Of a stretch of 64,000 nt of DNA, positions 14,065 through 38,629 are shown one piece after another. Both the position numbers and the translations under genes were made by a program. A model generated the notes under the pieces. The model saw only the letters and a program-made list of their open reading frames with translations. It had not been told where the DNA came from and made no database searches. The first letter of the stretch is position 1. The number at the start of each line of letters is the position of its first letter. The DNA comes from Promethearchaeota archaeon (lineage in GTDB: Archaea > Asgardarchaeota > Lokiarchaeia > Sigyniarchaeales > SOKP01): contig JBHLOC010000002.1 of assembly GCA_048940925.1 (NCBI GenBank), positions 128,001 through 192,000 on the forward strand, written 5' to 3'.

Positions 14065-14661
14065 ATGAATAGTAAGGAAAACAACAGAAATATCAAAAAC
14101 ACGGAAAAAATAGATGAAATTGCCGACGCAATTGAACAATCTATGAAAAAAGGTCATATTAGTACATTAATATTATTATCATTAGAGAAAGAACCTTCAC
14201 ATGGATATAAATTAACTGAAGAAATTCAAAAAGGTACCTATGGAGTTTGGGCTCCAACAGCTTCAGCATTATACCCTCACTTATCTTCATTAACAGAGAA
14301 AGGATTAATTGAATATACTACAGAATTAGATGGCAAAAGAGAACGAAAAGTGTATAATATCACACTCAAGGGAAAAGAGGCATTGAAAACGATTATTGAA
14401 CGGCAACAAAATATGGTAAAATCATTTCTTTCAATGTTATTTTCTACAATAGGGATAACTGATTCAACTATTCCTAATGAATTAGAAGGATTATTTGGAC
14501 CCGATATTATAGAAGTAGATTTATTGAATAAATCTGACCAGGAAAAAATAAAACTTTTATCCAAACGAAAGGTTGTACTTTCAAGGGTAGTTGATAAATT
14601 AAGTAATGTAGTGAATGATATTAATATGAGAATCGAAGATTTGCGAAGAAGCAAAGAATAG
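14065..14661 (+). CDS. PadR family transcriptional regulator
   Basis: EPSHGYKL, LYPHLSSLTEKGLI, RKVYNITLKG. Confidence 0.88.
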   Translation: MNSKENNRNIKNTEKIDEIADAIEQSMKKGHISTLILLSLEKEPSHGYKLTEEIQKGTYGVWAPTASALYPHLSSLTEKGLIEYTTELDGKRERKVYNITLKGKEALKTIIERQQNMVKSFLSMLFSTIGITDSTIPNELEGLFGPDIIEVDLLNKSDQEKIKLLSKRKVVLSRVVDKLSNVVNDINMRIEDLRRSKE

Positions 14662-15779: not shown

Positions 15780-16075
15780 TTAAATTTCAATCTTTTTTCA
15801 ATCCTTCTAAAAGGGTAATTCTTTCTTTTTCATTTATGTGACAAATATGATTAAAAAACTGAATAAAAATGTATGAAAATGATCACATTTTAATTCAATG
15901 TTTTTTATTTTCTATCATATAATTTCCTAAAAGTTTCAATCAGAATAATAATGATATATCTCTACTATCATCAATCTATAAACTGGTTATGTTGATAAAT
16001 AGAAAGAAATAAAAATGTTAAAAAAGAATAAAATCTAAAAAAAGAATTATTAAATTCAGAGATATATCAAAAAAG

Positions 16076-16091
16076 TATACAATCGTGTATA
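16076..16091. promoter_or_regulatory. Palindrome TATACA-ATCG-TGTATA upstream of the Sec-hdrA operon (candidate operator)
   Basis: Perfect 6-bp arms ~30 nt before the ATG at 16120. Confidence 0.35.
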
Positions 16092-16119
16092 AAAAAAAGA
16101 GGTGGATGTGTAAAAATAC

Positions 16120-18063
16120 ATGAAGAATAATCAAAATCATCGGATTGGATACTATGCATGTCAATGAGGTATAAATATAAGGAGTAAAGTAGATTGCGAT
16201 GAGTTAACTGAATATGTAGCTAAAAACTTTGACGATGTTGTAATTTCTAAGAAAAATTCATTTCTATGAACTGATAATGCTCAAAAAGAGATAATTGAAG
16301 ATATTAGAGAAAAGAATTTAAATAGAATTGTGGCATCAGCTTGAACTCCACGTACTCATGAAGTAATTTATAGGGGCACAATTGCTAAAACTGATTTGAA
16401 TCCTTATTATTTTCAGATGGTAAATGTGCGTGAACACTGCTCATGGTGTACAGATAGTAGAGAAGAAGCTACAGAAAAGGCTAAAATCCTAGTAAAAAGT
16501 GGTATTGAAAGGGTTAAAAGATTAGAACCAGTTCCTATTAAGACAGTTCCGGTCACTAAAGCTACTTTAGTGATTGGAGCTGGTATTGCAGGGATGAATG
16601 CGGCTCTGGATCTAGCGAATCAAGGTATCAAGGTTTACTTAGTTGACTGTAAAACTACGATAGGAGGGAGAATGGCACAATTAGACAGAACTTTCCCGAC
16701 AGATGACTGTGCAATATGAATATGTGGTCCAAAAATGTTAGAAGTTAATAGAAATGAGAATATTGAATTATTGACTTATAGTGAAGTAAAGAATGTAGAA
16801 GGATATGTCGGTAACTACAGAGTAACAATTGAGAGGAAACCAAGATTTACTACAGATGAATGTAATGGATGTGGAGCCTGCGCTGAGGTCTGTCCAGTTT
16901 ATACGACAAATTATTTCGATGAACATTTAGGGGCACGAAAAGCAATTGATATATCATTTGGCCAAGCAGTACCTTTTTTATATGATATCGATCGAAACAC
17001 CTGTGTAGAATGTTTCTCTTGTGTAGACGCCTGTGAATTAGATGCCATAGATTTTAGTCAAGAACCAAAAGAACTTAAAATTGATGTTGGTACGATTATT
17101 ATAGCGACTGGATGGGATATATATGAACCTTTTGGTGAATACGGATATGGAGAATTTGAAAACGTTATAACTCAACCTCAATTAGAACGAATGTTAGCTC
17201 CAAATGGACCTCTTGAAGGCCATGTACACAGAATATCAGATAATAAAGAACCTAAAGAAATTGTATTTATACAATGTGTTGGAAGTCGAGAAACTGAACG
17301 AACATACTGTAGTGGTGTCTGTTGTATGCTTGCTCTAAAAAATGGAAGATTACTCTTAGAGGAATTTCCAGATGCAAATATTACAGTTTGTTATATTGAT
17401 ATTAGAACACCTGAAAAAGGATTTGAAGAGTATTACGAACGATCAAAGGAAGCGGGAATTCGAATGATTAGAGGAAAAGTAGGAGAAATCTCAGAAGATC
17501 CTGATACTAAAAATATTAAAGTTCGAGTGTATTCATCGCTTACTGATGAAATAATAATAATTGATGCTGATTTAGTAGTATTATCCACAGCAGCACTCCC
17601 TTCAAAAGGATCCGAACAAATTGTTAAACTTTTAAATCTAGATACAAATACGTATGGATTCCTTACAGAATCACACTTTGGGTTAATGCCCCAAGAGACA
17701 AAAACAAAGGGAATTTTTATTGCTGGATTTGCTCAAGGACCAAAAAATATTTCTTATTCAGTTTCTCAAGCCAGAGCTGCTGCCAGTAAAGTAGCAGAGT
17801 TAACAGCACCAGGAGAAATCGATATAGAAATGATTACAGCTGAAGTTGATAGTGAATTTTGTATATCATGCAGACGATGTGAAAAAGAATGTCCGAAAGG
17901 TGCAATTAAAATTAAGGAGGATATCGGAGCATTTATTGATGAGATAAATTGTGATGGATGTGGTATTTGTGCTACATGTTGTCCTACACAAGCTATTGAT
18001 ATAAGATATTATCGAGATCATCAATTATTTGCTGAGATTGATGGTCTTTTAGGAGGTGCGTAG
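16120..18063 (+). CDS. hdrA: Heterodisulfide reductase subunit A, selenoprotein with four UGA-encoded Sec (647 aa)
   Basis: One frame from ATG 16120 to TAG 18063. TGA at 16165 (RIGYYACQUGINI), 16267 (NSFLUTD), 16342 (ASAUTPRTHE) and 16717 (TFPTDDCAIUICGPKM), each aligning to Cys in the four hdrA paralogues of this window. Confidence 0.92.
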
Positions 18064-18066
18064 ACA

Positions 18067-18537
18067 ATGAGTAAGTATAATTATAAGGTGGTAGCATTTG
18101 CGTGTATAAAATGAGGATATAGTGCAGCTGATTTAGCAGGAGTTTCCCGATTGAAATATACATCAGCTATAAAAATCATCAAAGTGCGTTGTACCGGAAG
18201 AATCGATCTAAAACATATACTCTACAGTATAAAATCTGGAGCTGACGGTGTTATGATTGTAGGATGAAGACCAAATGAATGCCAATTTAAAAAGGGTAAT
18301 TTTACGGCTGAAAAGCATGTAGAATTAGCAAACAGGATATTAGAATTGAGAGGTTTTGGAAGTCAAAGAGTAAATATGTACTGGGTAAGTGGAGCAGAAG
18401 CAGAAAAATTTGTGCGAAGTGTAGAAGATATTTTTTCGAAAGTGGAGAAAGTAGGTCCAAATCCGATAAATTTAATGGATATTAAACCAGAAATAAATAA
18501 AAAAGAAAAAGAACTAATTACAGCCCCTGTTGAATGA
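18067..18537 (+). CDS. mvhD: MvhD/VhuD/FlpD [2Fe-2S] subunit, selenoprotein with two Sec (156 aa)
   Basis: ATG 18067; FACIKUGYSAADLAG (TGA 18112), VRCTGRID, IVGURPNEC (TGA 18265). Paralogues have CNWCSY and GCHxGDC. Confidence 0.92.
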
Positions 18538-18588
18538 TTCTTGTAAAAAATGCTAGTTACAAGAGGACTAGCCTTGCAATGGAGGGGG
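18524..18588 (+). promoter_or_regulatory. Eukaryote-like SECIS element candidate
   Basis: AUGA (18534-37), 9-bp stem UUCUUGUAA/UUACAAGAG (18538-46/18557-65), A-rich loop AAAAUGCUAG, GA (18566-67); possible lower helix CCCCU/AGGGG. Confidence 0.8.
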
Positions 18589-18645
18589 ATTATTAAATAT
18601 TATAATAGATATAGATCAAAAATTTTTAAAAAAAAGGTTTAAAAT

Positions 18646-20142
18646 GTGGTTCAGATAGGCAAAGAGTATTCCTTTGATAAGATCAATCCACGGAATTTAA
18701 TGGAAGCAACATACAGGGCTATTGAAAATTTTCAGATAAGGGCTCTTTTTGAAGCAAAAGAGGAAATTTTACAAGCTGGAAAATATTCGGAAGAAGAATT
18801 TTATGAAATTTTAGACTCAATGATCGATGCTGAAACAGAACGCACATTGATTTTAGAAGAAATACGAGGTAACGAGCCCTTATTTTTAGAAGAACTAGTA
18901 AAGATTGTAAAGGACGTGCCTCCTGTAAATGTTATTAGAGATATATTTTATTTAAAGGAACAGGGTTATATTAAAAAAGAAATCGAAACTAAAATTAAAA
19001 AAGTTATCAAGAAAATTAAAGGAGAAGAAAAAGAGGTTGAAGAAAAAGAATTTTTCTATAGATATCAAGCTAAAGATCTTCCAAATGATTTTATAGAGCA
19101 CCATTTGGAACCTGTTTCTATTGTATTTAAAGCAGGAGTATGTTGTCATTGTGGATGGTGCTCCTCTATCTGTCCTGTAAATGCCATAACTGTAACTGCT
19201 GACACACTTGAAATACACGATGAAATTTGTATTAAATGTGGATTATGTTATACAGTTTGTCCTCGTTCCTTTTCAATTGAACAAGCTTTAATGGCTATTA
19301 AAAAACTTGATAAAACCTTTAAATTTTCAGAAAAAATTAATGGTTATATCGATACCTATTCTGCCACCACAACTAAAGATGAGATCAAAAAGGTACGACA
19401 AGATGGAGGAATCGTAACCTCATTATGTGAATATTTACTTACGAATAAATTAGTTGATGCGATTGTAGCTGTTCAGCATTCAAAAGACTTATGGAAACCG
19501 GAGCCAGTTATTGTAGATAATTTAAAAGATCTCTATAAGACAGGAGGGACGAAATATGCAAATGCATCAACATTAGCAATTATTGATAAAACAAAGATGT
19601 ATGAGAACATAGCAGTAGTAGGAACTCCCTGTATGATGAATGCTTTAGAAAAAGGTCAATTATTTCCAAGCGGTATAGTCTTTTTCAAGAATATAAAATA
19701 TAAAATTGGACTTTTTTGCATGGAATCTTTTCCCTATGAGGGTGTACTTGGATTAATTAAGGAGCAATTTAAACAGGATTTTACTAAAGTAACAAAGATG
19801 GATATCAGCGGTGGTAAATTTATTATCTATATGGATTCAGGAGAAGAATTAAAAGTACCACTTAACGATATTAAATCTTATGCACGCTCTAATTGTCATT
19901 ATTGTGAAGATTTAACAGCGGATTATGCTGATATTTCTGTAGGTTCAATTGGTTCAGGAAGTGGCTGGTCTTCTGTAATCACCCGAAATAAAAAGGGAGA
20001 AAAAATTTTTAAAGCTGCAGTTAAAGCTAAGTTAATCGAAGCTAAAAGTCTAAAAGAAGTTAAACCTGGTTTAGGTTTATTAGAAAGGATTGCTCTTAGT
20101 AAGAGGAAGAACTGTAAACCAATTAATCTAGAAGGAGAATAA
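18646..20142 (+). CDS. FrhB/FdhB-family protein with N-terminal helical/wHTH module and ferredoxin
   Basis: CCHCGWCSSICP, CIKCGLCYTVCP, RQDGGIVT, VGTPC, IGLFCME, CHYCEDLTADYADISVG. Confidence 0.85.
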   Translation: MVQIGKEYSFDKINPRNLMEATYRAIENFQIRALFEAKEEILQAGKYSEEEFYEILDSMIDAETERTLILEEIRGNEPLFLEELVKIVKDVPPVNVIRDIFYLKEQGYIKKEIETKIKKVIKKIKGEEKEVEEKEFFYRYQAKDLPNDFIEHHLEPVSIVFKAGVCCHCGWCSSICPVNAITVTADTLEIHDEICIKCGLCYTVCPRSFSIEQALMAIKKLDKTFKFSEKINGYIDTYSATTTKDEIKKVRQDGGIVTSLCEYLLTNKLVDAIVAVQHSKDLWKPEPVIVDNLKDLYKTGGTKYANASTLAIIDKTKMYENIAVVGTPCMMNALEKGQLFPSGIVFFKNIKYKIGLFCMESFPYEGVLGLIKEQFKQDFTKVTKMDISGGKFIIYMDSGEELKVPLNDIKSYARSNCHYCEDLTADYADISVGSIGSGSGWSSVITRNKKGEKIFKAAVKAKLIEAKSLKEVKPGLGLLERIALSKRKNCKPINLEGE

Positions 20143-20162
20143 CACATAAATATAATTTTATC

Positions 20163-21275
20163 ATGAGTTCAAAATCATTTAAGGATCTAATTAAAGAAGT
20201 TCATGAGAAAGGTATTTGTCAAGAATGTGGAGGCTGTGTAAGCTTTTGCAGTTCAGTTGATTATAATGTAATTGGATTTAAAGAACCCTTCTCACCTCCA
20301 GAATATATAAATAAAGATGCTTGTCTTGAATGTGGGATATGTTATTATCTCTGTCCTCAAACTCATATTTTGGATGATGATCTTAACAAAACATATAATT
20401 TTACTGATTTCAATTCAATGCCTTTAGGGTATTTCGAAGATATTCTATCTTGTCAAACAACTGATCCTGAATTTTTAAAACATGGAACTGATGGTGGAGT
20501 GGTAAATACAATCATAAACTACCTATTAGAAAAAAAATTAATTGATGGAGCGATTGTAGCAAAATATCAGGGTCCATTCTCTAGAGAATCCATGTTTGCT
20601 GAAGGAAAAGGTGATCTAATTAAGGCATCAGGTACAAAATTGGAAATATCTACCCAATTAGATGAAATTCAAAGATTTTGTACATATACACGCTCCATCC
20701 CTCAATTAAACCACTATAAATTTAAAAAATTAGCAATAGTGGGGACACCTTGCCAAATTTATACGGTTAGATGTATGCAAAATTTAGGTGTGACCCCTTC
20801 TGAGTATATTGAAATATGTTTAGGATTATTTTGCTATCATAATTTTCTTTTTGAGAAAACTCAGAGAGAAAAATTTGAAAAAACTTTTAATTTAAAATTT
20901 GAAAATATAAAAAAAATAAATATTAAGGAAGATTTGATTCTAAACTTGCAGTATAATAAATCTAAAGAGAAAACACTCCATATTCCTTTTGAACAGTTGA
21001 CAGATTACATCCGTCCTCCCTGTCATTCTTGTACCGATTTTACTAATATCTATGCTGATATTTCATTTGGAGGTCTTGGATCACCAAATAAATATACTAC
21101 AGTAATTCCTCGTACAGAAAAAGGTAAAAAATTGATTAACAAAATTCTTGATGATAAGATTATTAAATGTTTAGACATTGATGCTACAGCTGAAAATAAA
21201 ATGAAAGAGTTAATCACAAAATTTTCTCGATTAAAGATAAAGCGAGGAAAAGAATTTATAGAGAATTTAATGTGA
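20163..21275 (+). CDS. FrhB/FdhB-family protein
   Basis: CQECGGCVSFC, CLECGICYYLCP, GTDGGVV, VGTPCQ, LGLFC, CHSCTDF..ADISFGG. Confidence 0.85.
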   Translation: MSSKSFKDLIKEVHEKGICQECGGCVSFCSSVDYNVIGFKEPFSPPEYINKDACLECGICYYLCPQTHILDDDLNKTYNFTDFNSMPLGYFEDILSCQTTDPEFLKHGTDGGVVNTIINYLLEKKLIDGAIVAKYQGPFSRESMFAEGKGDLIKASGTKLEISTQLDEIQRFCTYTRSIPQLNHYKFKKLAIVGTPCQIYTVRCMQNLGVTPSEYIEICLGLFCYHNFLFEKTQREKFEKTFNLKFENIKKINIKEDLILNLQYNKSKEKTLHIPFEQLTDYIRPPCHSCTDFTNIYADISFGGLGSPNKYTTVIPRTEKGKKLINKILDDKIIKCLDIDATAENKMKELITKFSRLKIKRGKEFIENLM

Positions 21276-21279: not shown

Positions 21280-22536
21280 GTGAAATTTATAACAGAAATA
21301 GAAAAAAAAGGGAAACCAAAGCAAGATATTGATGAAATAGATTTATTCTTAAAAAAAATATATGAACCTAATTTAATAAATTTATTAAGAAAATGTTATC
21401 AATGTGCTCGATGTTCAGGTGTATGTCAAGTTAGCAAAGTTCAGAAGTTCACACCAAGTAGAATAATTCAGATGATTTTAGAGGGTTTTGAGGATAAGAT
21501 TATCGAAAGTGGAGTTTTATGGGATTGTTTAACATGCAATGCTTGCCTCCAAAACTGTCCTAAAGATATAAACTTTGCGGACATTGTGCGAATAGCACGA
21601 TATAAAATGCAAAAAGAAGGTTTTCACAGTCTTGATCGGTTAATATCACATAAAGGCCTTTATCCGACAATAGGTGAACTAATGAGTCAAAACCATATTG
21701 ATATTACAAGACCCTTGGATTGGATTCCAAAAGGGTGTAAAGTTAAAGATAAAGGAAATATATTATATTTTGTTGGATGCATTCCTTTTTTTGGTTATGA
21801 TTTTGAGAATTTAGACAAAATAGCGTCTAGCACATTATCAATTATTTGTAAAATTGAAAATGAGCCTATTGTTGTCCTCAAGGAAGAAGTTTGCTGTGGA
21901 CATGATTTATATTGGGGGCAAGGTAAATTTGAAGTATATATAGAATTAGCAAAAAAAAATAAAAAATTATTTGAAAAAGCAGGGATTTCCACAATAATAA
22001 CAGCATGTGCGGAATGTTATAGAACATTTAAAGTGGATTATCCCAATTTATTTGAAGATTTCGACTCAAAATTTGAAGTTAAACATATTATTGAATATGT
22101 GTATGATAATTGGAAGCTAGGGAAAATAGCTTTTAAAAGTCCTAAAAAAGCTTATCAAAATATTAATTTTACTTTTCATGATCCTTGTAGATTAAGTAGA
22201 TTTTTACCAAAAAATATAAATCTAGTAGAAGAACTTCGAGAAATTTTTACACATCTAAACAGTCTTGGGTATAATTTCAAAGAAATGAAACATAATAAGC
22301 AGAATTCATTATGTTGTGGAGTCAGTTCTTGGTTGAATTGTAATGAGCGTTCAAAAGCATTGCGATATACTAGAATTTTAGAGGCAAAGGATGTCGGTTC
22401 TAAAGTATATACATCTTGTCCTAAATGCAATATCCATTTAAATTGTATAAAGAAAGATTATGAAGATATATCTTCAGTAGAAATTTCAGATCTTTCAGAA
22501 TTTCTAGTTGATATAATTTCTATTATAAAAAATTAA
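21280..22536 (+). CDS. HdrD-like (HdrC-type ferredoxin plus two CCG domains)
   Basis: CYQCARCSGVC, CLTCNACLQNCP, EVCCG, TACAEC, HDPCRL, LCCG, SCPKC. Confidence 0.85.
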   Translation: MKFITEIEKKGKPKQDIDEIDLFLKKIYEPNLINLLRKCYQCARCSGVCQVSKVQKFTPSRIIQMILEGFEDKIIESGVLWDCLTCNACLQNCPKDINFADIVRIARYKMQKEGFHSLDRLISHKGLYPTIGELMSQNHIDITRPLDWIPKGCKVKDKGNILYFVGCIPFFGYDFENLDKIASSTLSIICKIENEPIVVLKEEVCCGHDLYWGQGKFEVYIELAKKNKKLFEKAGISTIITACAECYRTFKVDYPNLFEDFDSKFEVKHIIEYVYDNWKLGKIAFKSPKKAYQNINFTFHDPCRLSRFLPKNINLVEELREIFTHLNSLGYNFKEMKHNKQNSLCCGVSSWLNCNERSKALRYTRILEAKDVGSKVYTSCPKCNIHLNCIKKDYEDISSVEISDLSEFLVDIISIIKN

Positions 22537-22557: not shown

Positions 22558-25500
22558 GTGGAAGGATCTGTATTAGTAATTGGAGGAGGTATTGCGGGAA
22601 TCCAAACATCTTTAGATTTAACTGAATTAGGATTCAAGGTGTATTTAGTAGAAAAAACACCCTCAATAGGAGGGAGAATGGCTCAACTTGATAAAACATT
22701 CCCTACATTAGACTGTAGTTTATGCATTTTGGCACCTAAAATGGTGGAAGTTTTAAGGAATCCTAACATTGAACTCATGACATATCATGAAGTGCAGAAA
22801 GTAACTGGAAAAACTGGAGATTTTAATGTAACAGTTCTTAAGAAACCTCGTTATATAGATGAATCAAAATGTAAAGGATGTGGAGATTGTGCCAGCAAAT
22901 GCCCTAAGATCGAAGCTCCTAATCTTTTTGACATGAATTTAGGTAAAAGGAAATCTATTTATATTCCTTTTCCTCAGGCTGTACCCCCTGTTTATTTAAT
23001 TGACTCTGAAATGTGCCTAAAACTCACTAGGGATGTATGTGGAGTATGTCAGAAAGTTTGTGAAGCGGATGCAATAGATTTCGAACAAAAGCCCCAAGAA
23101 ATTAAGTTAAAAGTAGGAGCAATTGTTGTAGCAACGGGATTTGATATGACCCAGGAAGGATTATCATCAAGGTGGGGTATATATCATGAAAATGTAATAA
23201 CTGCTTTAGAGTACGAACGAATCCTTTGTGCTAGTGGTCCGTTTGATGGTCATGTTCTACGCCCAAGTGATAAAAAAGAACCTGAAACAATAGCGTTTAT
23301 TCAGTGTGCAGGCTCCAGGGACTTACGTGAAAGAGTTCCTTATTGTTCAAGCGTATGCTGTATGTATTGTGCCAAAGAAGCCATAATCACACGGGAACAC
23401 TCTGAAAACTCAAAATGTTTTGTTTTTCGACATGATATTAGGGCATATGGAAAAAATTTCTATGAATTTACTCAAAGAGCTCAAGAAGAATATGGAGTAA
23501 CTTATTTTCATACAAAAATTAGTAAAATTAAAGAAGATCCTCAAACTAACGATTTAACTATTCTATATGAAGATTTACAAACGGGATTACTCAACGAGTT
23601 TAAAGCAAATTTAGTTATTTTAGCTACTCCGCTTATTCCATCGAAAGGTACTAGAGAATTGGCAAAAATTTTAGATATTAACTTAGATGATTATAATTTC
23701 TTTGAGGAAACATCTCACTTTTATAAATCTTTATCTTCAAGGGAGGGTGTTTTCTTAGCAGGATTTTGTCAAGGACCGATGGATATACCCGAAACCGTAG
23801 CAGATGCCAGTGGAGTGGCTTCACAGGTTGCAGCTTTACTTAACTCCGTTAAATTTACTCAAATCAAAGAAAAAGTTTTTGATGTACCAGAAAAAGAAGT
23901 TCTCTTAACTGATGATCCAAGAATTGGTGTGCTTATCTGCCACTGTGGTATTAATATAGGGAAATATATTGAAATACCAAAAGTTATAGATTATATTAAG
24001 GCATTACCGAATGTAGTTTTTTGTGAAGATAATTTATATTCATGTAGTTCTGATTCCCAGGAACTAATTAGAGAAGTCATCAAAGATTTTGATTTGAATA
24101 GGTTTATTGTTGCTTCATGTACTCCAAGAACTCATGAGGCTTTATTTCAAGAAACATGTCAAGAAGCTGGATTGAATAAGTATTTATTCGAGATGGTTAA
24201 CATACGGGACCAATGCTCTTGGGTTCATATGACTGAGAAAGAAGCAGCAACTGAAAAAGCTATTGATTTAATTGAAATGGCTATTGCTAAGTCTAGACTA
24301 TTACAACCACATACAGAACAAGAATTATCAGTGATACCTAATGCCTTAATAATTGGTGGTGGAGTATCTGGAATGACAGCTGCATTGAACATTGCAAATC
24401 AAGGATTTGATGTTTACCTCATAGAAAAGAAAAAGAAACTAGGAGGTCTTTTAAACGATTTATATCTTTTGTATCCAACTCAAGAAGATGCTTCGATATT
24501 CCTGAAGGAAATAACTCAGAAAGTTGAGAACCATAAAAATATTGAGGTTCATTTAGAGTCAAAAGTAAAAGATGTTAAAGGATATGTTGGAAATTATGAT
24601 GTATCCCTTATTAATACCAATAATGAGGTGAGCGAACTTAAAGTTGGTATTATTATTGTCGCTACTGGAGGTCAAGAATTAAAACCTGATCAATATTCGA
24701 TATATGATGATAAAAATCAAAATGTTATTACTCAATTAGAATTGGAGCAGAAATTAAAAAGTGAGGATAAGTCTTGGCTTGATAATATCAAACGAGTTAC
24801 TACAATTCTATGTGTAAATGCAAGACAAGATGAAGGGATTACATTTTGCTCAAATATATGCTGTGTAACGACTATCAAAAACATGAATATTCTAAAGGAA
24901 TTAAAACCAGACCTCGAAATCATTATCCTCTATAGAGATTTTCAAATGGCTAAAAAGGAATTTGAAGAATACTTTTTTGATAGGAGGAAAGATGCAATTC
25001 TTCTCAGATATGACATAAACAAACCACCAAAAATTACTAAAATAAAAAATAAACCTGAAAAATATGGTATAAAGGTATTTGATACTAATTTACAAGATTT
25101 CATTTCCTTTGATACAGATTTTGTAATCCTATCTCCTCCCATGATTCCATCAGATGATTCAAAAGAGTTAGGAAAAATGTTAAAAGTACCCTTAGATAGG
25201 CATGGCTTTTTCTTAGAAGCACATGCTAAATTAAGACCAGTAGATTTCGCTACTGATGGTGTTTTTCTATGTGGTTGTGCTCATTGGCCAAAACATATTC
25301 AAGAATCAATTACCCAAGCAAATGGAGCTGCTGGGAGAGCAAGCAGATTTTTAAGTTCAAAAGGCATTGTTGCATCAGGTTTAGTAGCAGAAGTAAATAG
25401 TGATATTTGTATAGGATGTGGTGTTTGTACGAAATTATGTCCTTATAATGCTATATCGAAAGATGAAGAAGGTATAGCGATTGTGAATAAACTTGTGTGT

Positions 25501-25608
25501 AAAGGCTGTGGGGTATGTGGTGCGAGTTGTCCCGAAAATGCTATAACTGTACATCACTTTACTACAGATCAGATCTTATCAGAAATCATTGTTTATGGGG
25601 GGGATTAA
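22558..25608 (+). CDS. hdrA: Large (double-FAD) HdrA-family flavoprotein
   Basis: Two GGGxxG FAD sites, LDKTFPT, ferredoxin insert, internal [14 protein letters not shown]-terminal 2x[4Fe-4S]. Confidence 0.9.
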   Translation: MEGSVLVIGGGIAGIQTSLDLTELGFKVYLVEKTPSIGGRMAQLDKTFPTLDCSLCILAPKMVEVLRNPNIELMTYHEVQKVTGKTGDFNVTVLKKPRYIDESKCKGCGDCASKCPKIEAPNLFDMNLGKRKSIYIPFPQAVPPVYLIDSEMCLKLTRDVCGVCQKVCEADAIDFEQKPQEIKLKVGAIVVATGFDMTQEGLSSRWGIYHENVITALEYERILCASGPFDGHVLRPSDKKEPETIAFIQCAGSRDLRERVPYCSSVCCMYCAKEAIITREHSENSKCFVFRHDIRAYGKNFYEFTQRAQEEYGVTYFHTKISKIKEDPQTNDLTILYEDLQTGLLNEFKANLVILATPLIPSKGTRELAKILDINLDDYNFFEETSHFYKSLSSREGVFLAGFCQGPMDIPETVADASGVASQVAALLNSVKFTQIKEKVFDVPEKEVLLTDDPRIGVLICHCGINIGKYIEIPKVIDYIKALPNVVFCEDNLYSCSSDSQELIREVIKDFDLNRFIVASCTPRTHEALFQETCQEAGLNKYLFEMVNIRDQCSWVHMTEKEAATEKAIDLIEMAIAKSRLLQPHTEQELSVIPNALIIGGGVSGMTAALNIANQGFDVYLIEKKKKLGGLLNDLYLLYPTQEDASIFLKEITQKVENHKNIEVHLESKVKDVKGYVGNYDVSLINTNNEVSELKVGIIIVATGGQELKPDQYSIYDDKNQNVITQLELEQKLKSEDKSWLDNIKRVTTILCVNARQDEGITFCSNICCVTTIKNMNILKELKPDLEIIILYRDFQMAKKEFEEYFFDRRKDAILLRYDINKPPKITKIKNKPEKYGIKVFDTNLQDFISFDTDFVILSPPMIPSDDSKELGKMLKVPLDRHGFFLEAHAKLRPVDFATDGVFLCGCAHWPKHIQESITQANGAAGRASRFLSSKGIVASGLVAEVNSDICIGCGVCTKLCPYNAISKDEEGIAIVNKLVCKGCGVCGASCPENAITVHHFTTDQILSEIIVYGGD

Positions 25609-25612: not shown

Positions 25613-26386
25613 ATGGAATTCAAACCAAAAATTTTAGGATTTTTATGTAATTGGTGTTCTTATGCTGGGGCTGATCTTGCAGGTGTAAGTCGAATTCAGT
25701 ATTCTCCAAATATTAGAATTATAAGAGTTATGTGTAGCGGTAGAGTTGATCCTATCTTCATTGCTGAAGCGTTTTCTAATAATATTGATGGTGTATTAGT
25801 TTTAGGATGTCATCCTGGAGATTGCCATTATATAAGTGGCAACTATGAAGCAGAAATAAAAATGAAGATGTTGAATAAATTATTAGAATTAATAGGGTAT
25901 TCTAAACGTTTACGATTAGATTGGGTTTCTGCTGCTGAAGGTAATAGATTTGCTCAGCTAGTTGATGAATTTAATGAACATATTAAGAAATTAGGTCCTA
26001 ACCCAATAAAAAACAAAAAACTAAAAGCTAAATTATCTGACGATTTTGCTGCAATAAAATCTGTTTTGATGGATTCTAGACTTAGAATTTTAGTGGGTAG
26101 AGAAAGAAAAATCACTACAGAAGGAAATGCATATAATGAGATAATCCCTATAGAGGAATTTGACCAAAAAATTGACGATGCAATTAATAATGAATTTTCA
26201 CGATATAAAATATTGCAAAAAATCTCTCACCATAGTAAATCTGTCCCAGAAATCTCTAAAGAGGTTCAAATTGCGCCAAATGAAGTATTAAATCACATTG
26301 TTACTTTAAGACAAAGAGGGCTTGTTGATTTAGATGAGGTTAATGAAGAAATACCAACATTTATTTCAATTAAGGAGGGTAAATAA
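25613..26386 (+). CDS. mvhD: MvhD with C-terminal helical/wHTH extension
   Basis: [29 protein letters not shown]; likely start MEFKPK at 25613 after a G-rich SD. Confidence 0.88.
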   Translation: MEFKPKILGFLCNWCSYAGADLAGVSRIQYSPNIRIIRVMCSGRVDPIFIAEAFSNNIDGVLVLGCHPGDCHYISGNYEAEIKMKMLNKLLELIGYSKRLRLDWVSAAEGNRFAQLVDEFNEHIKKLGPNPIKNKKLKAKLSDDFAAIKSVLMDSRLRILVGRERKITTEGNAYNEIIPIEEFDQKIDDAINNEFSRYKILQKISHHSKSVPEISKEVQIAPNEVLNHIVTLRQRGLVDLDEVNEEIPTFISIKEGK

Positions 26387-29300
26387 TGGAGAAAATAGGC
26401 GCTGTATTAGTGATAGGGGCAGGAATAGCAGGTATTCAAGCATCTATTGATTTAGCAGATTCTGGTTATAAAGTATATCTAGCGGAATCGACGATGAGTA
26501 TCGGTGGAGTTATGTCACAGCTAGATAAAACATTTCCTACAAATGATTGTGCTATATGTATACTCGCTCCAAAATTAGTACTTACTGGTCGTCATGAGAA
26601 TATAGATATTCTAATAAATTCCTCTATCGAAAAAATTGAAGGAAAACCTGGGAATTTTAAGGTTGAATTAAAACAGAAATCATTATATTTAGATCAAAAT
26701 AAATGCACAGGTTGCGGTGTCTGTGCTCAAAAATGTCCTATTGAAGCTATTGATTTTTTCAATGAAGGTCTTTCGAAAAAATCTGCGATATCTGTAAAAT
26801 TTCCCCAAGCAGTTCCTTTAGTGTTTTCAATAGATAAAGAAAAATGTATAGGTTGCGAAGTTTGTAAAGAAATTTGTAAAGCTGATGCAATAGATTATAA
26901 GTTAAAAGAAAAAAAAATTAATCTTAATGTAGGAGCAGTAATTTTAGCGGTTGGATTTGATGAATTTGAACCTGCTCCTTTAACAAATCTAGGATATGGT
27001 AAATTTTTAAATGTAATAACGAGTATTCAATTTGAGCGCATATTAAGCGCTAGTGGACCACACTCTGGTTTAATACTTCGTCCTTCGGATGGGATTATAC
27101 CCAGAAAAATAGCATTCCTACAATGTGTTGGATCAAGGGATAAAAGACATAATGTTGAATATTGTTCCTCAGTATGTTGTATGTATACTACAAAAGAAGC
27201 CGTAATTGCAAAAGAACATGTTAATATTATAGAACCAACTATTTTTACAATGGATATACGTGCATATGGTAAAGATTTTGATAAGTATATTGAACGAGCA
27301 AAACATGAACATGGGATACGATATATTAGAAGTAGAATTTCGAAAGTTAGTGAAATTCAAGACTCTAAAGATTTAAAGATTCGATATGAAACAGAAGATG
27401 GAAAAATCATCGAAGAGACCTTTAATTTAGTTGTTTTAGCTGTCGGAGCCCAACCTAATCATAGTGCTAAAGAATTGGCTGAAAAACTAGACGTTGAGTT
27501 AAATGAATACGGTTTTTGTAAGACTAATAGGTTTAATCCGGTAGAAACATCACAACCAGGGATTTATGTATGTGGGATGTTTGCTTCGCCTAAAGATATT
27601 CCAGAAACTGTTATCGAAGCAAGTGCTGCTGCTGGATGTGTGAATGTTCTTCTCTCTGAAACAAGAAATACATTAATCTCAAAGAAAGAAATGCCTGAAG
27701 AAATTGATGTGTCTGATGAACCCCCCCGAATAGGTGTTTTTATTTGTCATTGCGGGATAAATATTGGTGGTGTTGTTAATGTTCCTGAAGTAGTTGAATA
27801 TGCTAAATCTCTTCCAAGCGTAGTTTACGCTGAACATAATCTCTATACATGTTCTGCTGATACTCAAACTAATATTAAAGAAAAAATTCAAGAATATCAG
27901 CTTAATAGAGTTATAGTTGCCTCATGTACTCCGCGAACACATGAGCCATTGTTTCAAGCAACAATTCAGGAGGTAGGATTAAATAAATATCTGTTTGAGA
28001 TGGTCAATATTCGAGATCAGTGTTCTTGGGTTCACATGCATGAAGCTGAAAATGCTACCTTTAAAGCAAAAGACTTAATAAGAATGTCAGTAGCTAAAGC
28101 TAAGCAATTAGTACCATTGCAAGAACAAGAAATTGATGTGGTTGATAAAGGATTAATTATAGGCGGAGGTGTATCTGGAATGTCAGCAGCACTAAACCTA
28201 GCATCTCAAGGTTTTGAAGTATACTTACTTGAGAAGGAGGATTCTCTAGGCGGATTTGCTAAAAATATATTTCAAAGCCTTGAAAATGATAATATACAGG
28301 AATTTCTTGAAAATCTAATAAAAGCAGTTAAAGATAATCAATTGATTCATGCATATACAAATGCTCAAATCAATTCAATTTCAGGATACATTGGGAATTT
28401 TACCACCAATATAAATTATGGAAAAAATAATAAAAATGTGGATCTTGAGCATGGAATAATAATTGTAGCTACTGGAGCTAGAGAATATCAGCCAACAGAA
28501 TATAGCTTTGGAAAAGATAAAAGAATTATATCTCAAACTGAATTTGAAAAAATTCTTTTTACCACTGATAATATAAAGAATTTAAAATCAATTGTGATGA
28601 TTCAATGTGTTGGTTCTAGAAATGAAGAACATCCATATTGTAGTCGAATATGTTGCTCTGAAGCTATTAAAAATGCATTAAAAGCAAAAGAAATTGATCC
28701 TAATATTGAAATAGTAATTTTATATCGCGATATAAGAACCTACGGTTTTAAAGAGAAGTATTATAACCAAGCAAGAGAAAATAAAGTGATTTTTGTTAGA
28801 TTTGATGAAAATAATCCTCCAGAATTAAATATAAAAAACAAAAAATTAAGTATTTCTCTTAATAGACCTACCTTAGGAGATTTGGAAATTAATCCAGATT
28901 TGTTAGTATTAAGCACTGGGCTGGTAGCACCTCAAAAAGAAAATGAAGATTTAGCTAAAATGCTCAAAGTGCCGCTTAATGAAGATAAATTCTTTCTGGA
29001 AGCTCATGTTAAGTTAAGACCTATTGATTTCGCAACGGATGGGATATTCTTATGTGGATGTGCTCATTCACCTAAAAATATCAGAGAATCAATTGCTCAA
29101 GCAAATGGTGCCGCTGCCCAAGCAGTTAAAATTTTAAGTGCTGAAAATATTGTTACATCCGGTCTAGTTGCTACTGTAGTAGAAGAAAATTGTATTGGTT
29201 GTGGAACATGCGTTGAAGTTTGTCAATTTAATGCAATTGATTTAATTGAAAAAGAAAAAGTGTTTGAAGATTGTATAATTAAAATAAAAAAATCTCATAT

Positions 29301-29427
29301 TAATCCTGCCCTTTGTAAAGGTTGTGGCACATGTGGAGCGCAATGTCCAAATTCCGCAATTATTGTTAAGCATTTTGGTTTTGAGCAAATAACCGCTATG
29401 ATTTCAGCACTTTTAATTCAAAGTTAA
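26386..29427 (+). CDS. hdrA: Large (double-FAD) HdrA-family flavoprotein
   Basis: Same architecture as 22558; more divergent paralogue. Confidence 0.9.
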   Translation: MEKIGAVLVIGAGIAGIQASIDLADSGYKVYLAESTMSIGGVMSQLDKTFPTNDCAICILAPKLVLTGRHENIDILINSSIEKIEGKPGNFKVELKQKSLYLDQNKCTGCGVCAQKCPIEAIDFFNEGLSKKSAISVKFPQAVPLVFSIDKEKCIGCEVCKEICKADAIDYKLKEKKINLNVGAVILAVGFDEFEPAPLTNLGYGKFLNVITSIQFERILSASGPHSGLILRPSDGIIPRKIAFLQCVGSRDKRHNVEYCSSVCCMYTTKEAVIAKEHVNIIEPTIFTMDIRAYGKDFDKYIERAKHEHGIRYIRSRISKVSEIQDSKDLKIRYETEDGKIIEETFNLVVLAVGAQPNHSAKELAEKLDVELNEYGFCKTNRFNPVETSQPGIYVCGMFASPKDIPETVIEASAAAGCVNVLLSETRNTLISKKEMPEEIDVSDEPPRIGVFICHCGINIGGVVNVPEVVEYAKSLPSVVYAEHNLYTCSADTQTNIKEKIQEYQLNRVIVASCTPRTHEPLFQATIQEVGLNKYLFEMVNIRDQCSWVHMHEAENATFKAKDLIRMSVAKAKQLVPLQEQEIDVVDKGLIIGGGVSGMSAALNLASQGFEVYLLEKEDSLGGFAKNIFQSLENDNIQEFLENLIKAVKDNQLIHAYTNAQINSISGYIGNFTTNINYGKNNKNVDLEHGIIIVATGAREYQPTEYSFGKDKRIISQTEFEKILFTTDNIKNLKSIVMIQCVGSRNEEHPYCSRICCSEAIKNALKAKEIDPNIEIVILYRDIRTYGFKEKYYNQARENKVIFVRFDENNPPELNIKNKKLSISLNRPTLGDLEINPDLLVLSTGLVAPQKENEDLAKMLKVPLNEDKFFLEAHVKLRPIDFATDGIFLCGCAHSPKNIRESIAQANGAAAQAVKILSAENIVTSGLVATVVEENCIGCGTCVEVCQFNAIDLIEKEKVFEDCIIKIKKSHINPALCKGCGTCGAQCPNSAIIVKHFGFEQITAMISALLIQS

Positions 29428-31031: not shown

Positions 31032-34000
31032 ATGGAGGGATCTGTATTAGTAATTGGAGGAGGTATTGCGGGAATCCAAACATCTTTAGATTTAACTGAA
31101 TTAGGATTTAAAGTGTATTTAGTAGAAAAAACACCCTCAATTGGAGGGAGAATGGCTCAACTTGATAAAACATTCCCTACAAATGATTGTAGTTTATGTA
31201 TTCTTGCCCCGAAAATGGTGGAAGTATTTAGAAATCCTAATATTGAATTAATGACTTATCATGAAGTTCAAAAGATTTCTGGAAAAGCTGGAAATTTTAA
31301 TGTTACTGTTCTTAAGAAACCACGTTATATAGATGAGACAAAATGTAAAGGATGTGGGGATTGCGCGACCAAATGTCCAAAGATTGAAACCCCTAATATT
31401 TTTGATATGAATTTAGGCAAAAGAAAATCTGTTTACATACCGTTTCCTCAGGCAGTACCTCCTATATATTTAATTGACTCTGAATTATGTTTAAAACTCA
31501 CAAAAGGAGTATGCGGAGTCTGTGAAAAAGTTTGCAAGGCAGAAGCAATAGATTATGAACAACAACCCCAAGAAATCAAATTAAATGTTGGTGCTATCGT
31601 TGTTGCCACAGGATTTGATGTATTAGGGAAGGAATTATCCTCAAGATGGGGATATAGTTATAAGAATGTAGTTAATGCGTTAGAATATGAACGAATGTTA
31701 TCTGCTTCTGGACCTTTTGAAGGTCATATTCTACGTCCAAGCGATGAAAAAGAGCCAGAAATAATTGCATTTATTCAATGTGCTGGATCAAGGGATTTAC
31801 GTGAAGGAATTCCATATTGTTCAAGTGTATGTTGTATGTACACTGCTAAAGAAGCAATCATAACCCGGGAACACTCTGAAAATTCAAAATGCTTTGTGTT
31901 TAGGCATGATGTTAGAGCTTTCGGTAAAAATTTCTATGAGTATACCCAGAGAGCTCAAGAGGAATATGGGGTAAAATATTTTCAGACTAAAATTAGTAGA
32001 ATTTTAGAAGATCCAGAAACAAATGATTTAGTGATTCATTATGAGGATTTAAAAACTGGAGAATTTAAGGATTTTAAAGCAAACCTTGTAGTACTTGCAG
32101 CACCTCTCGTCCCTTCAGCTGGAACTAAAGAATTAGCTAAAATATTAGATATCGGATTGGATGAGTATAATTTTTTCAAAGAAAGATCATATTTTAATAA
32201 ATCCTTATCATCAAAAGAGGGTATTTTCATAGTAGGATTTTGTCAAGGTCCAATGGATATACCAGAAACTGTAGCAGATGCCAGTGGGGTGGCTTCACAT
32301 GTAGCAACCTTATTAAGTTCCTCTAAATTCACTGAAATAAAGGAAAAAATTATTGAGATACCAGAAAAAGAAGTTGCTTTAATGGATGAGCCAAGAATTG
32401 GTGTTCTTATCTGTCATTGTGGTATTAATATTGGTAAATATATTGATATCCCTGAAGTGATAAAGCACATAAAATCATTACCTAATGTAGTTTTTTGTGA
32501 AGATAACTTATATTCATGTAGTTCTGATTCTCAAGAACGAATTAAAGAAGTAATAAAGGAATATGATTTAAATAGGTTTATTGTAGCTTCTTGCACACCA
32601 AGAACACATGAATCTTTGTTTCAGGAGACATGTCAAGAAGCTGGGTTAAATAAGTATTTGTTTGAAATGGTCAATATCCGTGATCAATGTAGTTGGGTTC
32701 ATATGACCGAAAAAGAACTTGCTACCGAAAAGGCTAAGGATCTAATAAGAATGGGAGTTGCGAAGTCAAGATTATTAAATCCACAAAAAGAAGAGAAATT
32801 AAAAATCACTCAAACTGCATTGGTGATTGGTGGAGGTATATCAGGAATGACTGCTGCCTTAAACATAGCTAATCAGGGATTTCTCGTGTATCTTATAGAA
32901 AAAGAGAAATATTTAGGTGGAAATTTAAGGTATTTAAATATGTTATATCCTACTCAAGAGGACGCATCAGTCTTACTAAATGAAACCATAGAAAAGGTCA
33001 TGAACAACAAGCACATTAAACTCTTCTTAAGTTCTGCATTGAAAGATATTAATGGGTATGTCGGTAATTATAATGTTTCACTTATCGATTTAGAAGAAAA
33101 AGTTCATGAATTAAAAATTGGTACGATTATAGTAGCCACAGGCGGACAAGAATTAAAGCCAAATGAATTTTTTAACTATAGTTATACGAACCATAATGTA
33201 ATTACACAGCTACAGCTAGAACAGAAATTAAAAGATGAAGATAGTTCGTGGCTTGACAAGCTAAATCATATCACTACACTCTTATGTGTTAATGCAAGAC
33301 AAGAAGAAGGGATAACCTATTGTTCAAATATCTGTTGTGAAAGTGCTATAAAAAATATCAACCTTCTAAAGGAACTAAAACAAGACCTCAAATTAATAGT
33401 TCTTTATAGAGATCTTCAAATGGCTAAGAAAGAATTTGAAGCTTATTATCGTGAGCGAAGAAAAGATGCTGTTTTTTTGAGATATGATTTAAATAAACCA
33501 CCAATAATTAGTAATATAAATGGGAATGCTGAAAAGTTTGAAATAAAAGTATTTGATACCAATTTGCAAGATAACATCGAATTTGAAACAGATTTACTGG
33601 TATTATCGACTCCTATGGTTCCAGCTGATAATTTAGAAGAATTAGCACAGATGTTAAAGGTTCCGTTGGATAAAAATGGATTCTTCTTAGAAGCACATGT
33701 TAAATTAAGACCGCTAGATTTTGCTACAGATGGAATATTCTTATGTGGGTGTGCTCAATGGCCAAAAAATATACAAGATTCAATATCTCAAGCAAATGGT
33801 GCTGCTGGAAGAGCATGTAGATTTCTGGGCGTTAAGGAAATTACAACTTCTGGATTAGTAGCAGAAGTGGATCCTGATATATGTATTGGTTGTGGAACAT
33901 GTAAGGAAACATGCTCTTATAGCGCAATAGAACTCTTAGAAACTAAAAGAGAATTTGAAGAAGTATGTTTATCTATAAAAAAATCGTCGATCAATTCAGG

Positions 34001-34112
34001 ATTATGCAAAGGATGCGGAACTTGTGCTGTGAATTGTCCTGTTGGCGCTATTTCTATAAAACACTACGATTTTGAACAAATTAATGCTATGATTAAAACA
34101 CTAGCGATATAA
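31032..34112 (+). CDS. hdrA: Large (double-FAD) HdrA-family flavoprotein
   Basis: Close paralogue of 22558 and 35534. Confidence 0.9.
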   Translation: MEGSVLVIGGGIAGIQTSLDLTELGFKVYLVEKTPSIGGRMAQLDKTFPTNDCSLCILAPKMVEVFRNPNIELMTYHEVQKISGKAGNFNVTVLKKPRYIDETKCKGCGDCATKCPKIETPNIFDMNLGKRKSVYIPFPQAVPPIYLIDSELCLKLTKGVCGVCEKVCKAEAIDYEQQPQEIKLNVGAIVVATGFDVLGKELSSRWGYSYKNVVNALEYERMLSASGPFEGHILRPSDEKEPEIIAFIQCAGSRDLREGIPYCSSVCCMYTAKEAIITREHSENSKCFVFRHDVRAFGKNFYEYTQRAQEEYGVKYFQTKISRILEDPETNDLVIHYEDLKTGEFKDFKANLVVLAAPLVPSAGTKELAKILDIGLDEYNFFKERSYFNKSLSSKEGIFIVGFCQGPMDIPETVADASGVASHVATLLSSSKFTEIKEKIIEIPEKEVALMDEPRIGVLICHCGINIGKYIDIPEVIKHIKSLPNVVFCEDNLYSCSSDSQERIKEVIKEYDLNRFIVASCTPRTHESLFQETCQEAGLNKYLFEMVNIRDQCSWVHMTEKELATEKAKDLIRMGVAKSRLLNPQKEEKLKITQTALVIGGGISGMTAALNIANQGFLVYLIEKEKYLGGNLRYLNMLYPTQEDASVLLNETIEKVMNNKHIKLFLSSALKDINGYVGNYNVSLIDLEEKVHELKIGTIIVATGGQELKPNEFFNYSYTNHNVITQLQLEQKLKDEDSSWLDKLNHITTLLCVNARQEEGITYCSNICCESAIKNINLLKELKQDLKLIVLYRDLQMAKKEFEAYYRERRKDAVFLRYDLNKPPIISNINGNAEKFEIKVFDTNLQDNIEFETDLLVLSTPMVPADNLEELAQMLKVPLDKNGFFLEAHVKLRPLDFATDGIFLCGCAQWPKNIQDSISQANGAAGRACRFLGVKEITTSGLVAEVDPDICIGCGTCKETCSYSAIELLETKREFEEVCLSIKKSSINSGLCKGCGTCAVNCPVGAISIKHYDFEQINAMIKTLAI

Positions 34113-34253: not shown

Positions 34254-35534
34254 GTGAATTTTATTACTGAAATTGAAAAAGGGGATAAAGTAGAAGATCT
34301 CAGAGCTGAAAAAAATAAATTTCTTGAAAAAATCTATGACCCAGACATAAGAAAATTACTATATCGATGCTATCAATGTGTTCGCTGTAGTGGTGTCTGC
34401 CAACTTAGCCACGTTCAGAAGTTTGAGCCAAGTAAAATTATTCAAATGATATTAGAGGGTTTTGAGGATAAGATTATCGAGAGTGGAGTTTTATGGGATT
34501 GTTTAACATGCAACGCTTGTCTTCAAAATTGCCCTGAAGGAATAAATTTTGCAGATATTGTAAGAATGGTAAAATATAAATCACGAGAATCTGATAAACA
34601 AAATCCTGATGATTATGTTGCGCATAAGGGAGTATACACAACCATTTCAGAGATAATGAGCGAACCTCATATAAAGCCAGCGAGATCGCTCGAATGGATC
34701 CCTAAAGAATGTAAAGTTTCAGAACAAGGAAATATATTATACTATGTTGGATGCCTCCCTTATTTCAATTTTGAATTTGAAAACTCAGATTCAATTGCTG
34801 AAAGTACTTTAAAAATCCTCTGTCAGATTGAGAAAGAGCCAATTGTAGTTCTTAAAGATGAAATATGTTGTGGACATGACCTATATTGGGGTCAAGGCAA
34901 ATTTAATGCTTTCATCAATTTAGCAGAGAAGAATCTCAAAAGATTTGAAGAAACTGGTGCTACTACAATTGTCACTGCTTGTGCTGAATGCTATAGAACT
35001 TTTAAGGTTGATTATCTGAAATTATTCGAAGATTTTGATAAAAAATTTGTGGTTAAACATTTAATTGAATATGTATATGAAAAATGGAAAGAAAAGAAGA
35101 TTGAATTTAAAAATCCAAGTGAAATGGAAGAGCCTATTCAATTCACTTATCATGATCCATGTAGGTTAAGTAGGTTTTTACCTAAAAATAGTAAGATTAT
35201 TGATAATGTACGTGAAATTTTTCATCATTTAAATAAAATTGGATATAAGTTTAATGAAATGGCACATAATAAAACTGATGCGTTATGTTGTGGAGTAAGT
35301 TCTTGGATGAATTGTAATGACCGATCGAAGGCATTAAGGTATAAACGACTATTAGAAGCGAAGGATGTGGGTGAAATAATGGTAACATCATGCCCAAAAT
35401 GTAAATTCCATTTAACATGTTTACAAAATGATTATGAAGATATATCATCGGTTGAGATAATAGATTTCTCAGAGTTCCTAGTAGACTTAATAAAGATAAA
35501 AGAATCAAGTGAAGAATTGGAGGAAGAAAAATAA
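34254..35534 (+). CDS. HdrD-like (ferredoxin plus CCG domains)
   Basis: Paralogue of 21280 with the same motifs. Confidence 0.85.
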   Translation: MNFITEIEKGDKVEDLRAEKNKFLEKIYDPDIRKLLYRCYQCVRCSGVCQLSHVQKFEPSKIIQMILEGFEDKIIESGVLWDCLTCNACLQNCPEGINFADIVRMVKYKSRESDKQNPDDYVAHKGVYTTISEIMSEPHIKPARSLEWIPKECKVSEQGNILYYVGCLPYFNFEFENSDSIAESTLKILCQIEKEPIVVLKDEICCGHDLYWGQGKFNAFINLAEKNLKRFEETGATTIVTACAECYRTFKVDYLKLFEDFDKKFVVKHLIEYVYEKWKEKKIEFKNPSEMEEPIQFTYHDPCRLSRFLPKNSKIIDNVREIFHHLNKIGYKFNEMAHNKTDALCCGVSSWMNCNDRSKALRYKRLLEAKDVGEIMVTSCPKCKFHLTCLQNDYEDISSVEIIDFSEFLVDLIKIKESSEELEEEK

Positions 35535-38500: not shown

Positions 38501-38629
38501 TGTAAAGGTTGTGGAACATGTGCAGCTACTTGTAAAGTTGGAGCAATAATGGTAAAACATTATGATTTTAATCAAATATCAGCTATGATTGATTCTTATT
38601 TGTTAGAAAAAGAAAAGGTAAAAAATTAA
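35534..38629 (+). CDS. hdrA: Large (double-FAD) HdrA-family flavoprotein
   Basis: Close paralogue of 22558 and 31032. Confidence 0.9.

Follow-up and report, generated by a model that had tools for sequence, protein, structure and literature searches.

Can a gene whose reading frame is crossed by four stop codons encode a working protein, and if so, what do the residues at those codons do? This question is raised by positions 16,120 to 18,063 of a 64,000-nucleotide stretch of Asgard archaeal DNA (contig C41:128001-192000; hereafter, the window), where a frame for the protein HdrA contains four in-frame TGA codons. The window belongs to a genome of 4.8 Mb in 90 contigs with 29.7% GC. An earlier examination of the letters, which we call the sequence-only reading, had proposed that the frame is a hidden selenoprotein with four selenocysteine (Sec) residues, three of them in the N-terminal iron–sulfur (Fe–S) domain. 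The computational analysis described here bears that proposal out through conservation, selection, a Sec insertion sequence (SECIS), and decoding machinery. Specifically, we conclude with high confidence that 16120-18063 is a functional hdrA of Promethearchaeota (Lokiarchaeia-type Asgard) with Sec at residues 16, 50, 75, and 200, and that it is a member of the known Loki class of multi-Sec HdrA proteins. Its family membership suggests that its activity would be that of HdrA, flavin-based electron bifurcation.

A frame interrupted only by UGA

Once TGA is read through, the hdrA coding sequence (16120-18063, + strand) runs unbroken for 647 codons and ends with a TAG stop (18061-18063); there is no frameshift and no stop other than TGA. 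Each of the four in-frame UGA codons, read as Sec, falls on a cysteine (Cys) column. Three lie in the N-terminal domain: codon 16 in the motif C-Q-U-G (16165-16167), codon 50 in F-L-U-T (16267-16269), and codon 75 in S-A-U-T-P-R (16342-16344). The fourth, codon 200 in D-C-A-I-U (16717-16719), is the canonical HdrA Sec site. Its column holds X (Sec) in the solved chain 9sfi_A and, by an ungapped offset, corresponds to Cys197 of the M. thermolithotrophicus chain 5odc_A. Open reading frame (ORF) calling recovers the gene as two pieces, one of 107 and one of 442 amino acids, and an exact look-up in a protein collection found neither of them.

Residues 2-646 of the read-through product align to five solved HdrA chains (phmmer, E-values 4e-199 to 7e-159), and the domains follow in the four-domain HdrA order: N-terminal domain, thioredoxin reductase (TrxR)-like domain for flavin adenine dinucleotide (FAD), inserted ferredoxin, and C-terminal ferredoxin. 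Pfam places Pyr_redox_2/FAD at residues 149-243, along with two ferredoxin regions. The full conserved set of Cys is present as Cys or Sec, namely residues 14/16/50/75 of the N-terminal domain, the CxxC pair 197/200, the 386/397/401/402 cluster, and four CxxCxxCxxxC-type motifs. An AlphaFold2 model of the N-terminal domain (predicted local distance difference test score 92.5) matches chains 8rvu_A, 5odc_A, and 7bkb_A with template modeling (TM) scores of 0.87-0.91 and root-mean-square deviations (rmsd) of 1.1-1.7 Å (Foldseek). A wide search with the same model by VIA-align returned just generic flavodoxin- or lumazine-synthase-like alpha/beta folds, at Z of about 10.

The genome itself supplies an alignment against which the TGA positions can be judged. 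It encodes ten full-length HdrA paralogues, including this gene, and about nine fused double-HdrA genes. Among the ten, 26 of the 647 columns are invariant Cys/Sec, and all four TGAs stand on such columns; the chance that four random hits would do so is (26/647)^4, or about 3e-6. This alignment and the window's own fused double-HdrA genes agree with the original description of a frame broken by TGAs alone, at conserved Cys.

One explanation that competes with recoding is decay: the locus would be a pseudogene, an HdrA paralogue with four nonsense mutations that yields at most the C-terminal ORF of 442 residues. ORF callers do give fragments only, and at least nine other full-length HdrA copies in the genome could cover the function. 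Yet all four stops are TGA, all are on invariant Cys columns, and neither frameshifts nor other stops accompany them.

Selenocysteine decoding and the genetic code

If the TGAs are recoded, the host should possess the means to do so, and its genome was checked for them. A tRNA-Sec gene lies on contig C3 (ARAGORN; Rfam RF01852, 63.7 bits). SepSecS is 500 nt away from it (484.6 bits), and a gene for a SelB-like GTPase (240 bits) lies 4 kb upstream of the tRNA-Sec/SepSecS pair, such that the three form a Sec cluster inside 6.5 kb (C3:45426-51927). Two tandem selD genes, with one in-frame TGA in each, occupy C72:3553-6078, and a PSTK-like gene (139 bits) is present on contig C8. The tRNA-Sec, SepSecS, and SelD matches are above curated cut-offs; PSTK and the SelB-like gene fall below the cut-offs of the bacterial and euryarchaeal models, yet both are clear best matches. 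Judged by its gene content, the genome appears to hold a complete Sec-decoding trait of the archaeal/eukaryotic type, with two SelD proteins that themselves contain Sec.

Could TGA instead be a sense codon everywhere in this genome (e.g., for Trp, Gly, or Cys), with no SECIS-dependent recoding? Such an altered code would open the hdrA frame equally well. However, 6 of the 47 long ORFs in the window terminate at TGA in the ordinary way, among them the ORFs ending at 9777, 21275, and 57952. Thus, the TGAs in hdrA represent site-specific recoding rather than a changed code, as the sequence-only reading had held. Moreover, in-frame TGAs occur just at Cys columns of the known selenoprotein families HdrA, VhuD, and SelD, no ordinary gene of the window was seen to need TGA as sense, the genome has its dedicated tRNA-Sec and full Sec pathway, and a conserved SECIS follows each TGA-bearing hdrA locus. 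We consider an altered code extremely improbable.

Conservation and selection

A decaying gene and a recoded gene should leave different traces in relatives. In a search of 40 related genomes, 18 of the 24 from the same genus carried an orthologue at 80-91% identity. Seventeen of these are full length with three to five TGAs, most with four, and one is truncated. A scan of species-representative genomes extended the set to 80 orthologous loci, mostly in metagenome-assembled genomes (MAGs) of Promethearchaeota/Promethearchaeia that originate from many studies; 73 of the loci are full length (75-91% identity). TGA is present in 73/73 at site 16, in 73/73 at site 75, and in 73/73 at site 200. Site 50 alternates, with TGA in 51 orthologues and a Cys codon (TGT/TGC) in 22. 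Alternation of TGA with Cys at these columns had been put forward as a check on recoding, and it is at site 50 that we find it.

A maximum-likelihood tree places the proteins with three or four Sec residues in a clade with 100/100 support, within a monophyletic group of Sec-type HdrAs. Branches with Sec at site 50 are intermingled on this tree with branches that have Cys there, which means that the site has switched more than once.

Selection tells the same story for the part of the gene that only read-through would translate together with the rest. For codons 1-92, the ratio of nonsynonymous to synonymous change (dN/dS) is 0.085, compared with 0.035-0.05 in the other domains (Nei-Gojobori, 17 orthologues, with a synonymous difference of about 0.6). 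This low value indicates that the region upstream of the last UGA is translated and constrained; neutral evolution of these codons, which would have spoken against a selenoprotein, is not what we observe. A pseudogene fits poorly with purifying selection upstream of the last TGA and with TGA kept at three sites in every full-length orthologue despite roughly 60% synonymous difference, and we regard that explanation as very improbable.

A further objection is that the TGAs are assembly or sequencing artefacts or that the contig is a contaminant of its bin. The contamination estimate of the bin is 8.4%. Nonetheless, MAGs that were assembled independently in many studies also have these four TGAs, and the 265-kb contig also bears other Loki-type HdrA genes. 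To artefact or contamination we assign next to no probability.

A two-Sec partner gene and a shared SECIS

Three nucleotides after the hdrA stop begins vhuD/mvhD (18067-18537, + strand), a member of the FlpD family (Pfam FlpD, E-value 1.6e-42). On the same strand it carries in-frame TGAs for Sec at codons 16 (18112-18114) and 67 (18265-18267), both of which are kept in 69/69 orthologues. The protein aligns without gaps to solved MvhD/VhuD chains, with U16 exactly at Cys16 of M. marburgensis MvhD (9sw2_D). A third in-frame TGA (18535-18537) coincides with the UGA inside the AUGA core of the SECIS, and 49/69 orthologues have it in frame. The vhuD coding sequence therefore ends either within the core or, if this UGA is read through, 9 nt past it at a TAA (18544-18546).

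The SECIS is of the Loki type and spans 18534-18567 (+ strand). It consists of the AUGA core (18534-18537), a 9-bp stem (18538-18546 with 18557-18565), an A-rich apical loop (18547-18556) of 10 nt (11 nt in the majority of orthologues), and a closing GA (18566-18567). Such an element was found after all five Sec-type hdrA loci of the genome and after most orthologous loci. Among 44 distinct orthologous sequences, eight of the nine stem pairs show changes on both sides, and 94% of cells are paired, compared with 40-60% in slid controls; 0/500 shuffles reach the observed values. Two results run counter to this. The minimum-energy structure of a single-sequence fold of 18505-18605 is not the SECIS hairpin (z -0.9), and an Rfam scan of 15900-18800 with E-values up to 10 gave chance snoRNA and miRNA matches alone and no SECIS family. 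Loki-type SECIS elements are apparently absent from Rfam. Covariation among the aligned sequences supports a real helix.

The arrangement suggests how decoding may proceed. hdrA would be co-transcribed with the two-Sec vhuD/mvhD, and all six UGAs, at most about 2.4 kb away from the signal, would be recoded via the one eukaryote-like lokiSECIS at the vhuD 3' end. The genome's own tRNA-Sec, PSTK, SepSecS, SelD, and SelB/EFSec-like factor would presumably carry out the recoding.

A known class of selenoprotein

The sequence-only reading knew of no HdrA with Sec at three presumed ligands of the N-terminal cluster. That claim of novelty fails because multi-Sec HdrA–VhuD pairs were described in 2016 and four-site orthologues were catalogued in 2024; the four-Sec hdrA is an already known kind of gene. 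According to Mariotti et al. (2016; PMC4989117), Lokiarchaeota HdrA has up to four Sec at five possible positions, vhuD is always next, and one lokiSECIS after vhuD serves as many as six UGAs within about 2 kb. Huang et al. (2024; PMC11227280) catalogued 1439 Asgard selenoproteins, and their HdrA FASTA (supplementary file 77) includes 54-57 sequences with the motifs of this subfamily, among them orthologues with the Sec symbol (X) at all four sites (e.g., from GCA_013375485). We deduce the identity of our sites with those of Mariotti et al. from the text of that paper together with the Huang et al. FASTA.

The present locus agrees with the Loki HdrA–VhuD pairs of these two studies in several respects: hdrA directly precedes vhuD in the same orientation, separated from it by a very short spacer; HdrA has up to four Sec, the canonical site always among them; VhuD has two Sec; and after vhuD comes a single SECIS built of an AUGA...GA core, a 9-bp stem, and an apical loop rich in A. 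The class is characterized by a loop of about 11 nt that begins with A residues and by GA or AA on the 3' side; apart from the loop length, 10 nt here, nothing essential differs.

Similarity extends to the HdrA proteins of Methanococcales and Methanopyrus (e.g., M. maripaludis, 9sfi_A). These have the same domain order, all of the Fe–S Cys motifs, about 50% full-length identity, Sec at DCxxU, and a vhuD partner with two Sec at the same positions. In contrast to the protein studied here, they have one Sec only, with Cys at 16/50/75; their SECIS is of the archaeal type, and they function in reducing the CoM-S-S-CoB heterodisulfide. No methanogenesis context is evident at the Loki-type hdrA locus.

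Which Sec residues could hold the N-terminal cluster?

[quoted passage not shown] In the crystal structure, as the available part of PMC9012536 relates it, one ligand of this cluster comes from the partner chain, at Cys197. Cryo-electron microscopy (cryo-EM) of the M. marburgensis complex has the cluster, named HA3, as a "shuttle cluster" on a mobile arm (PMC13580544). The same work describes HdrA Cys202/Cys205 (197/200 here), along with Cys16 of MvhD, as further conserved Cys located between the arm clusters and the FAD. Published accounts are split on the canonical site, which is a cluster ligand in the crystal structure (by way of PMC9012536) versus one half of a dynamic Cys/Sec pair (PMC13518236, PMC13580544). 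The Loki pairs have a parallel history. The paper of Mariotti et al., which predates the HdrA structure, calls these Sec sites not cluster-coordinating and proposes catalytic Cys/Sec roles (PMC4989117), whereas the later structural accounts put the sites in or next to the N-terminal cluster.

The N-terminal domain offers few candidates. It has four invariant Cys positions only (14, 16, 50, and 75; residue 107 is variable and is Asp in 9sfi_A), and three of the four, 16, 50, and 75, are Sec here. It follows that if three of them ligate HA3, at least two of the ligands are Sec.

Comparison among paralogues shows where Sec is tolerated and where it is not. Five of the ten full-length paralogues in this genome are of the Sec type; without exception, these carry Sec at 16 as well as at 200. 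Sec beyond these two sites occurs at 50 and 75 in the hdrA of 16120-18063 and at 402 in one other paralogue. About 25 related genomes yielded 46 Sec-type paralogues, in which the states of sites 16/50/75/200 (C for Cys, U for Sec) are UCCU in 24, UUCU in 8, CCCU in 4, UCUU in 3, CUCU in 3, CUUU in 2, CCUU in 1, and UUUU in 1. Sites 200 (46/46) and 16 (36/46) are the commonest to bear Sec. Pooling these paralogues with the 73 orthologues gives 119 sequences of Sec-type HdrA; site 200 is Sec in all of them, and Sec appears in every combination at 16/50/75. In none of the 119 does Sec occur at C14 or C197.

The paralogue with Sec at 402 lies at C85:64812-66845 (+ strand) and bears Sec at 16, 200, and 402; the TrxR-domain cluster has a CC motif, of which 402 is the second Cys. 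The SECIS of this paralogue lies 14 nt past the stop, and no vhuD follows. Separately, TGA occurs in single genomes (L018/L039, L117, and a few others) at the ferredoxin-ligand Cys columns 258, 295, 298, 301, and 614. Such codons could be errors, or they could mark additional Sec positions comparable to the C-terminal Sec in Loki HdrA.2 (Mariotti et al. 2016).

Fused genes provide another view of the residues. The window holds four fused double-HdrA genes (22558-25608, 26386-29427, 31032-34112, and 35534-38629) of about 1015-1030 amino acids, all of the Cys type. The first half of these proteins keeps C197/C200 without an N-terminal domain, and the second half has Cys at 14/16/50/75 but D, I, or V at 197/200. 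The complementary loss implies that the two residue groups are tied together. Each of the four genes is followed by a Cys-type FlpD or a similar small gene.

From these patterns, our preferred reading is that Sec50 and Sec75, with Cys14, would hold HA3, while Sec16 and Sec200 would be dynamic residues that meet as the arm docks near the FAD. Residue 200, a member of the CxxC pair by the bifurcating FAD, would complete the ligand sphere of the partner chain's HA3, as in the crystal structure reported in PMC9012536. Put more generally, at least two selenolates would hold HA3 (Sec50 with Sec75, or any two among 16/50/75), and the partner-chain Sec200 would complete it in the FAD-proximal state; the Sec left over would act as a selenol relay and is probably Sec16, which corresponds to MvhD Cys16/VhuD Sec16. 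We advance this general scheme tentatively, with somewhat less than even confidence, and we place the division of the Sec residues into ligands and relay at or slightly under an even chance. A mostly selenolate-ligated cluster is plausible, and of the three N-domain Sec, one may not be a ligand. Since Sec never occurs at 14 or 197, a ligand set consisting of 16, 50, 75, and 200 is equally allowed by the sequences.

Several results tell against selenolate ligation as just described. In M. marburgensis, the Cys202/Cys205 pair binds an unknown ligand rather than a cluster (PMC13580544, 2026). In the M. maripaludis cryo-EM map, density resembling a selenylsulfide connects Sec197 with a Cys at a place between the FAD and the N-terminal cluster (PMC13518236, 2026). 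A comparison of the N-terminal domain with MvhD by hhalign does put C14/U16/U50/U75 in register with C13/C16/C42/C67, but the match is weak (probability 7.6%, E-value 0.0046). Foldseek matches of the domain to MvhD chains are likewise weak, with TM of about 0.5, among generic alpha/beta folds; they, too, set residue 16 opposite MvhD Cys16. Against VhuD, BLASTP was not significant for the domain and Pfam gave no match.

In a different account, the Sec residues are decoded but are not stable Fe–S ligands. They would instead form a redox-active selenol chain that, through selenylsulfide/diselenide exchange or an extra cofactor, relays electrons between the VhuD [2Fe-2S]/HA3 and the FAD. This account opposes only the selenolate-ligated cluster, not the selenoprotein itself. 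The density at Sec197, the unknown ligand at Cys202/Cys205, and the description of MvhD Cys16 as an additional conserved Cys all favor it, as do the exact match of VhuD U16 to that residue, the prevalence of Sec at 200 and 16 among the paralogues, and the catalytic roles proposed by Mariotti et al. On the other hand, with only four invariant N-domain Cys for a [4Fe-4S] cluster, 50 and 75 can hardly all be free, and the crystal-structure account has the 197 site as a cluster ligand. Both descriptions can hold, for different residues. We judge a chain of selenols without stable ligation to be possible but well short of an even chance. In the searchable literature, we found no paper that links the Loki multi-Sec sites to the N-terminal cluster.

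Neighboring genes and a predicted complex

The gene that follows hdrA–vhuD encodes a FrhB/FdhB-like flavo-iron-sulfur protein with a ferredoxin domain (18646-20142, + strand; Pfam FrhB_FdhB_N/C), and such a gene is present in 74/80 orthologous loci. Next, by Pfam, are a second FrhB-like gene (20163-21275, + strand) and a gene for a protein with ferredoxin and CCG domains, HdrC/HdrB-like (21280-22536, + strand). HdrA–VhuD and the products of the conserved downstream genes, FrhB-like and CCG-domain proteins, could assemble into a complex for flavin-based electron bifurcation or confurcation. A PadR-family regulator is encoded about 1.5 kb upstream of the hdrA cluster (14065-14661), and for this gene no counterpart was found within the 1.5-kb flanks of the orthologous loci.

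Two characterized complexes provide points of reference. In the MvhAGD-HdrABC complex of M. thermolithotrophicus (5odc), HdrA is a full-length homologue (E-value 1e-194) with all six of the N-domain and CxxC Cys, and it superposes on the N-domain model with an rmsd of 1.2 Å. It differs in being without Sec, and its neighbors are the Mvh hydrogenase and HdrBC, compared with FrhB-like and CCG-domain genes here. The F420-dependent Elp-Hdr complex of M. marburgensis (8rvu; PMC12350162) similarly joins HdrA and an MvhD-like subunit to an FdhB/FrhB-type flavoprotein, likely as the electron-input module. Unlike in Elp-Hdr, no ElpA/FdhA-like subunit was seen next to hdrA here, and the likeness is one of gene neighborhood only.

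Because Sec replaces N-domain Cys and occupies residue 200, selenium would lie in and around the cluster that carries the low-potential electron. Its presence in and around HA3 probably shifts the potential, speeds ligand or chalcogen exchange at the interface of the mobile arm and the FAD, or both.

Implications

Standard ORF calling hides in this locus one of the most UGA-rich prokaryotic operons, in which six Sec codons over about 2.4 kb share one SECIS. The interest that remains lies in the structural meaning and chemistry of the Sec positions rather than in the existence of the gene. The recent cryo-EM papers leave open the path of electrons from the mobile-arm clusters to the bifurcating FAD and the part played by the Cys/Sec pair, and the Loki-type proteins carry selenium precisely on the conserved Cys/Sec-pair residues and on the shuttle-cluster domain. 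If the selenolate-ligated arrangement that we prefer is true, this would be the most selenium-rich natural Fe–S site known. The natural Sec/Cys variation at site 50 supplies ready-made comparison pairs, and under the same arrangement the UUUU and UCUU orthologues would constitute a natural experiment on how exchange of a sulfur for a selenium ligand tunes an electron-bifurcating enzyme.

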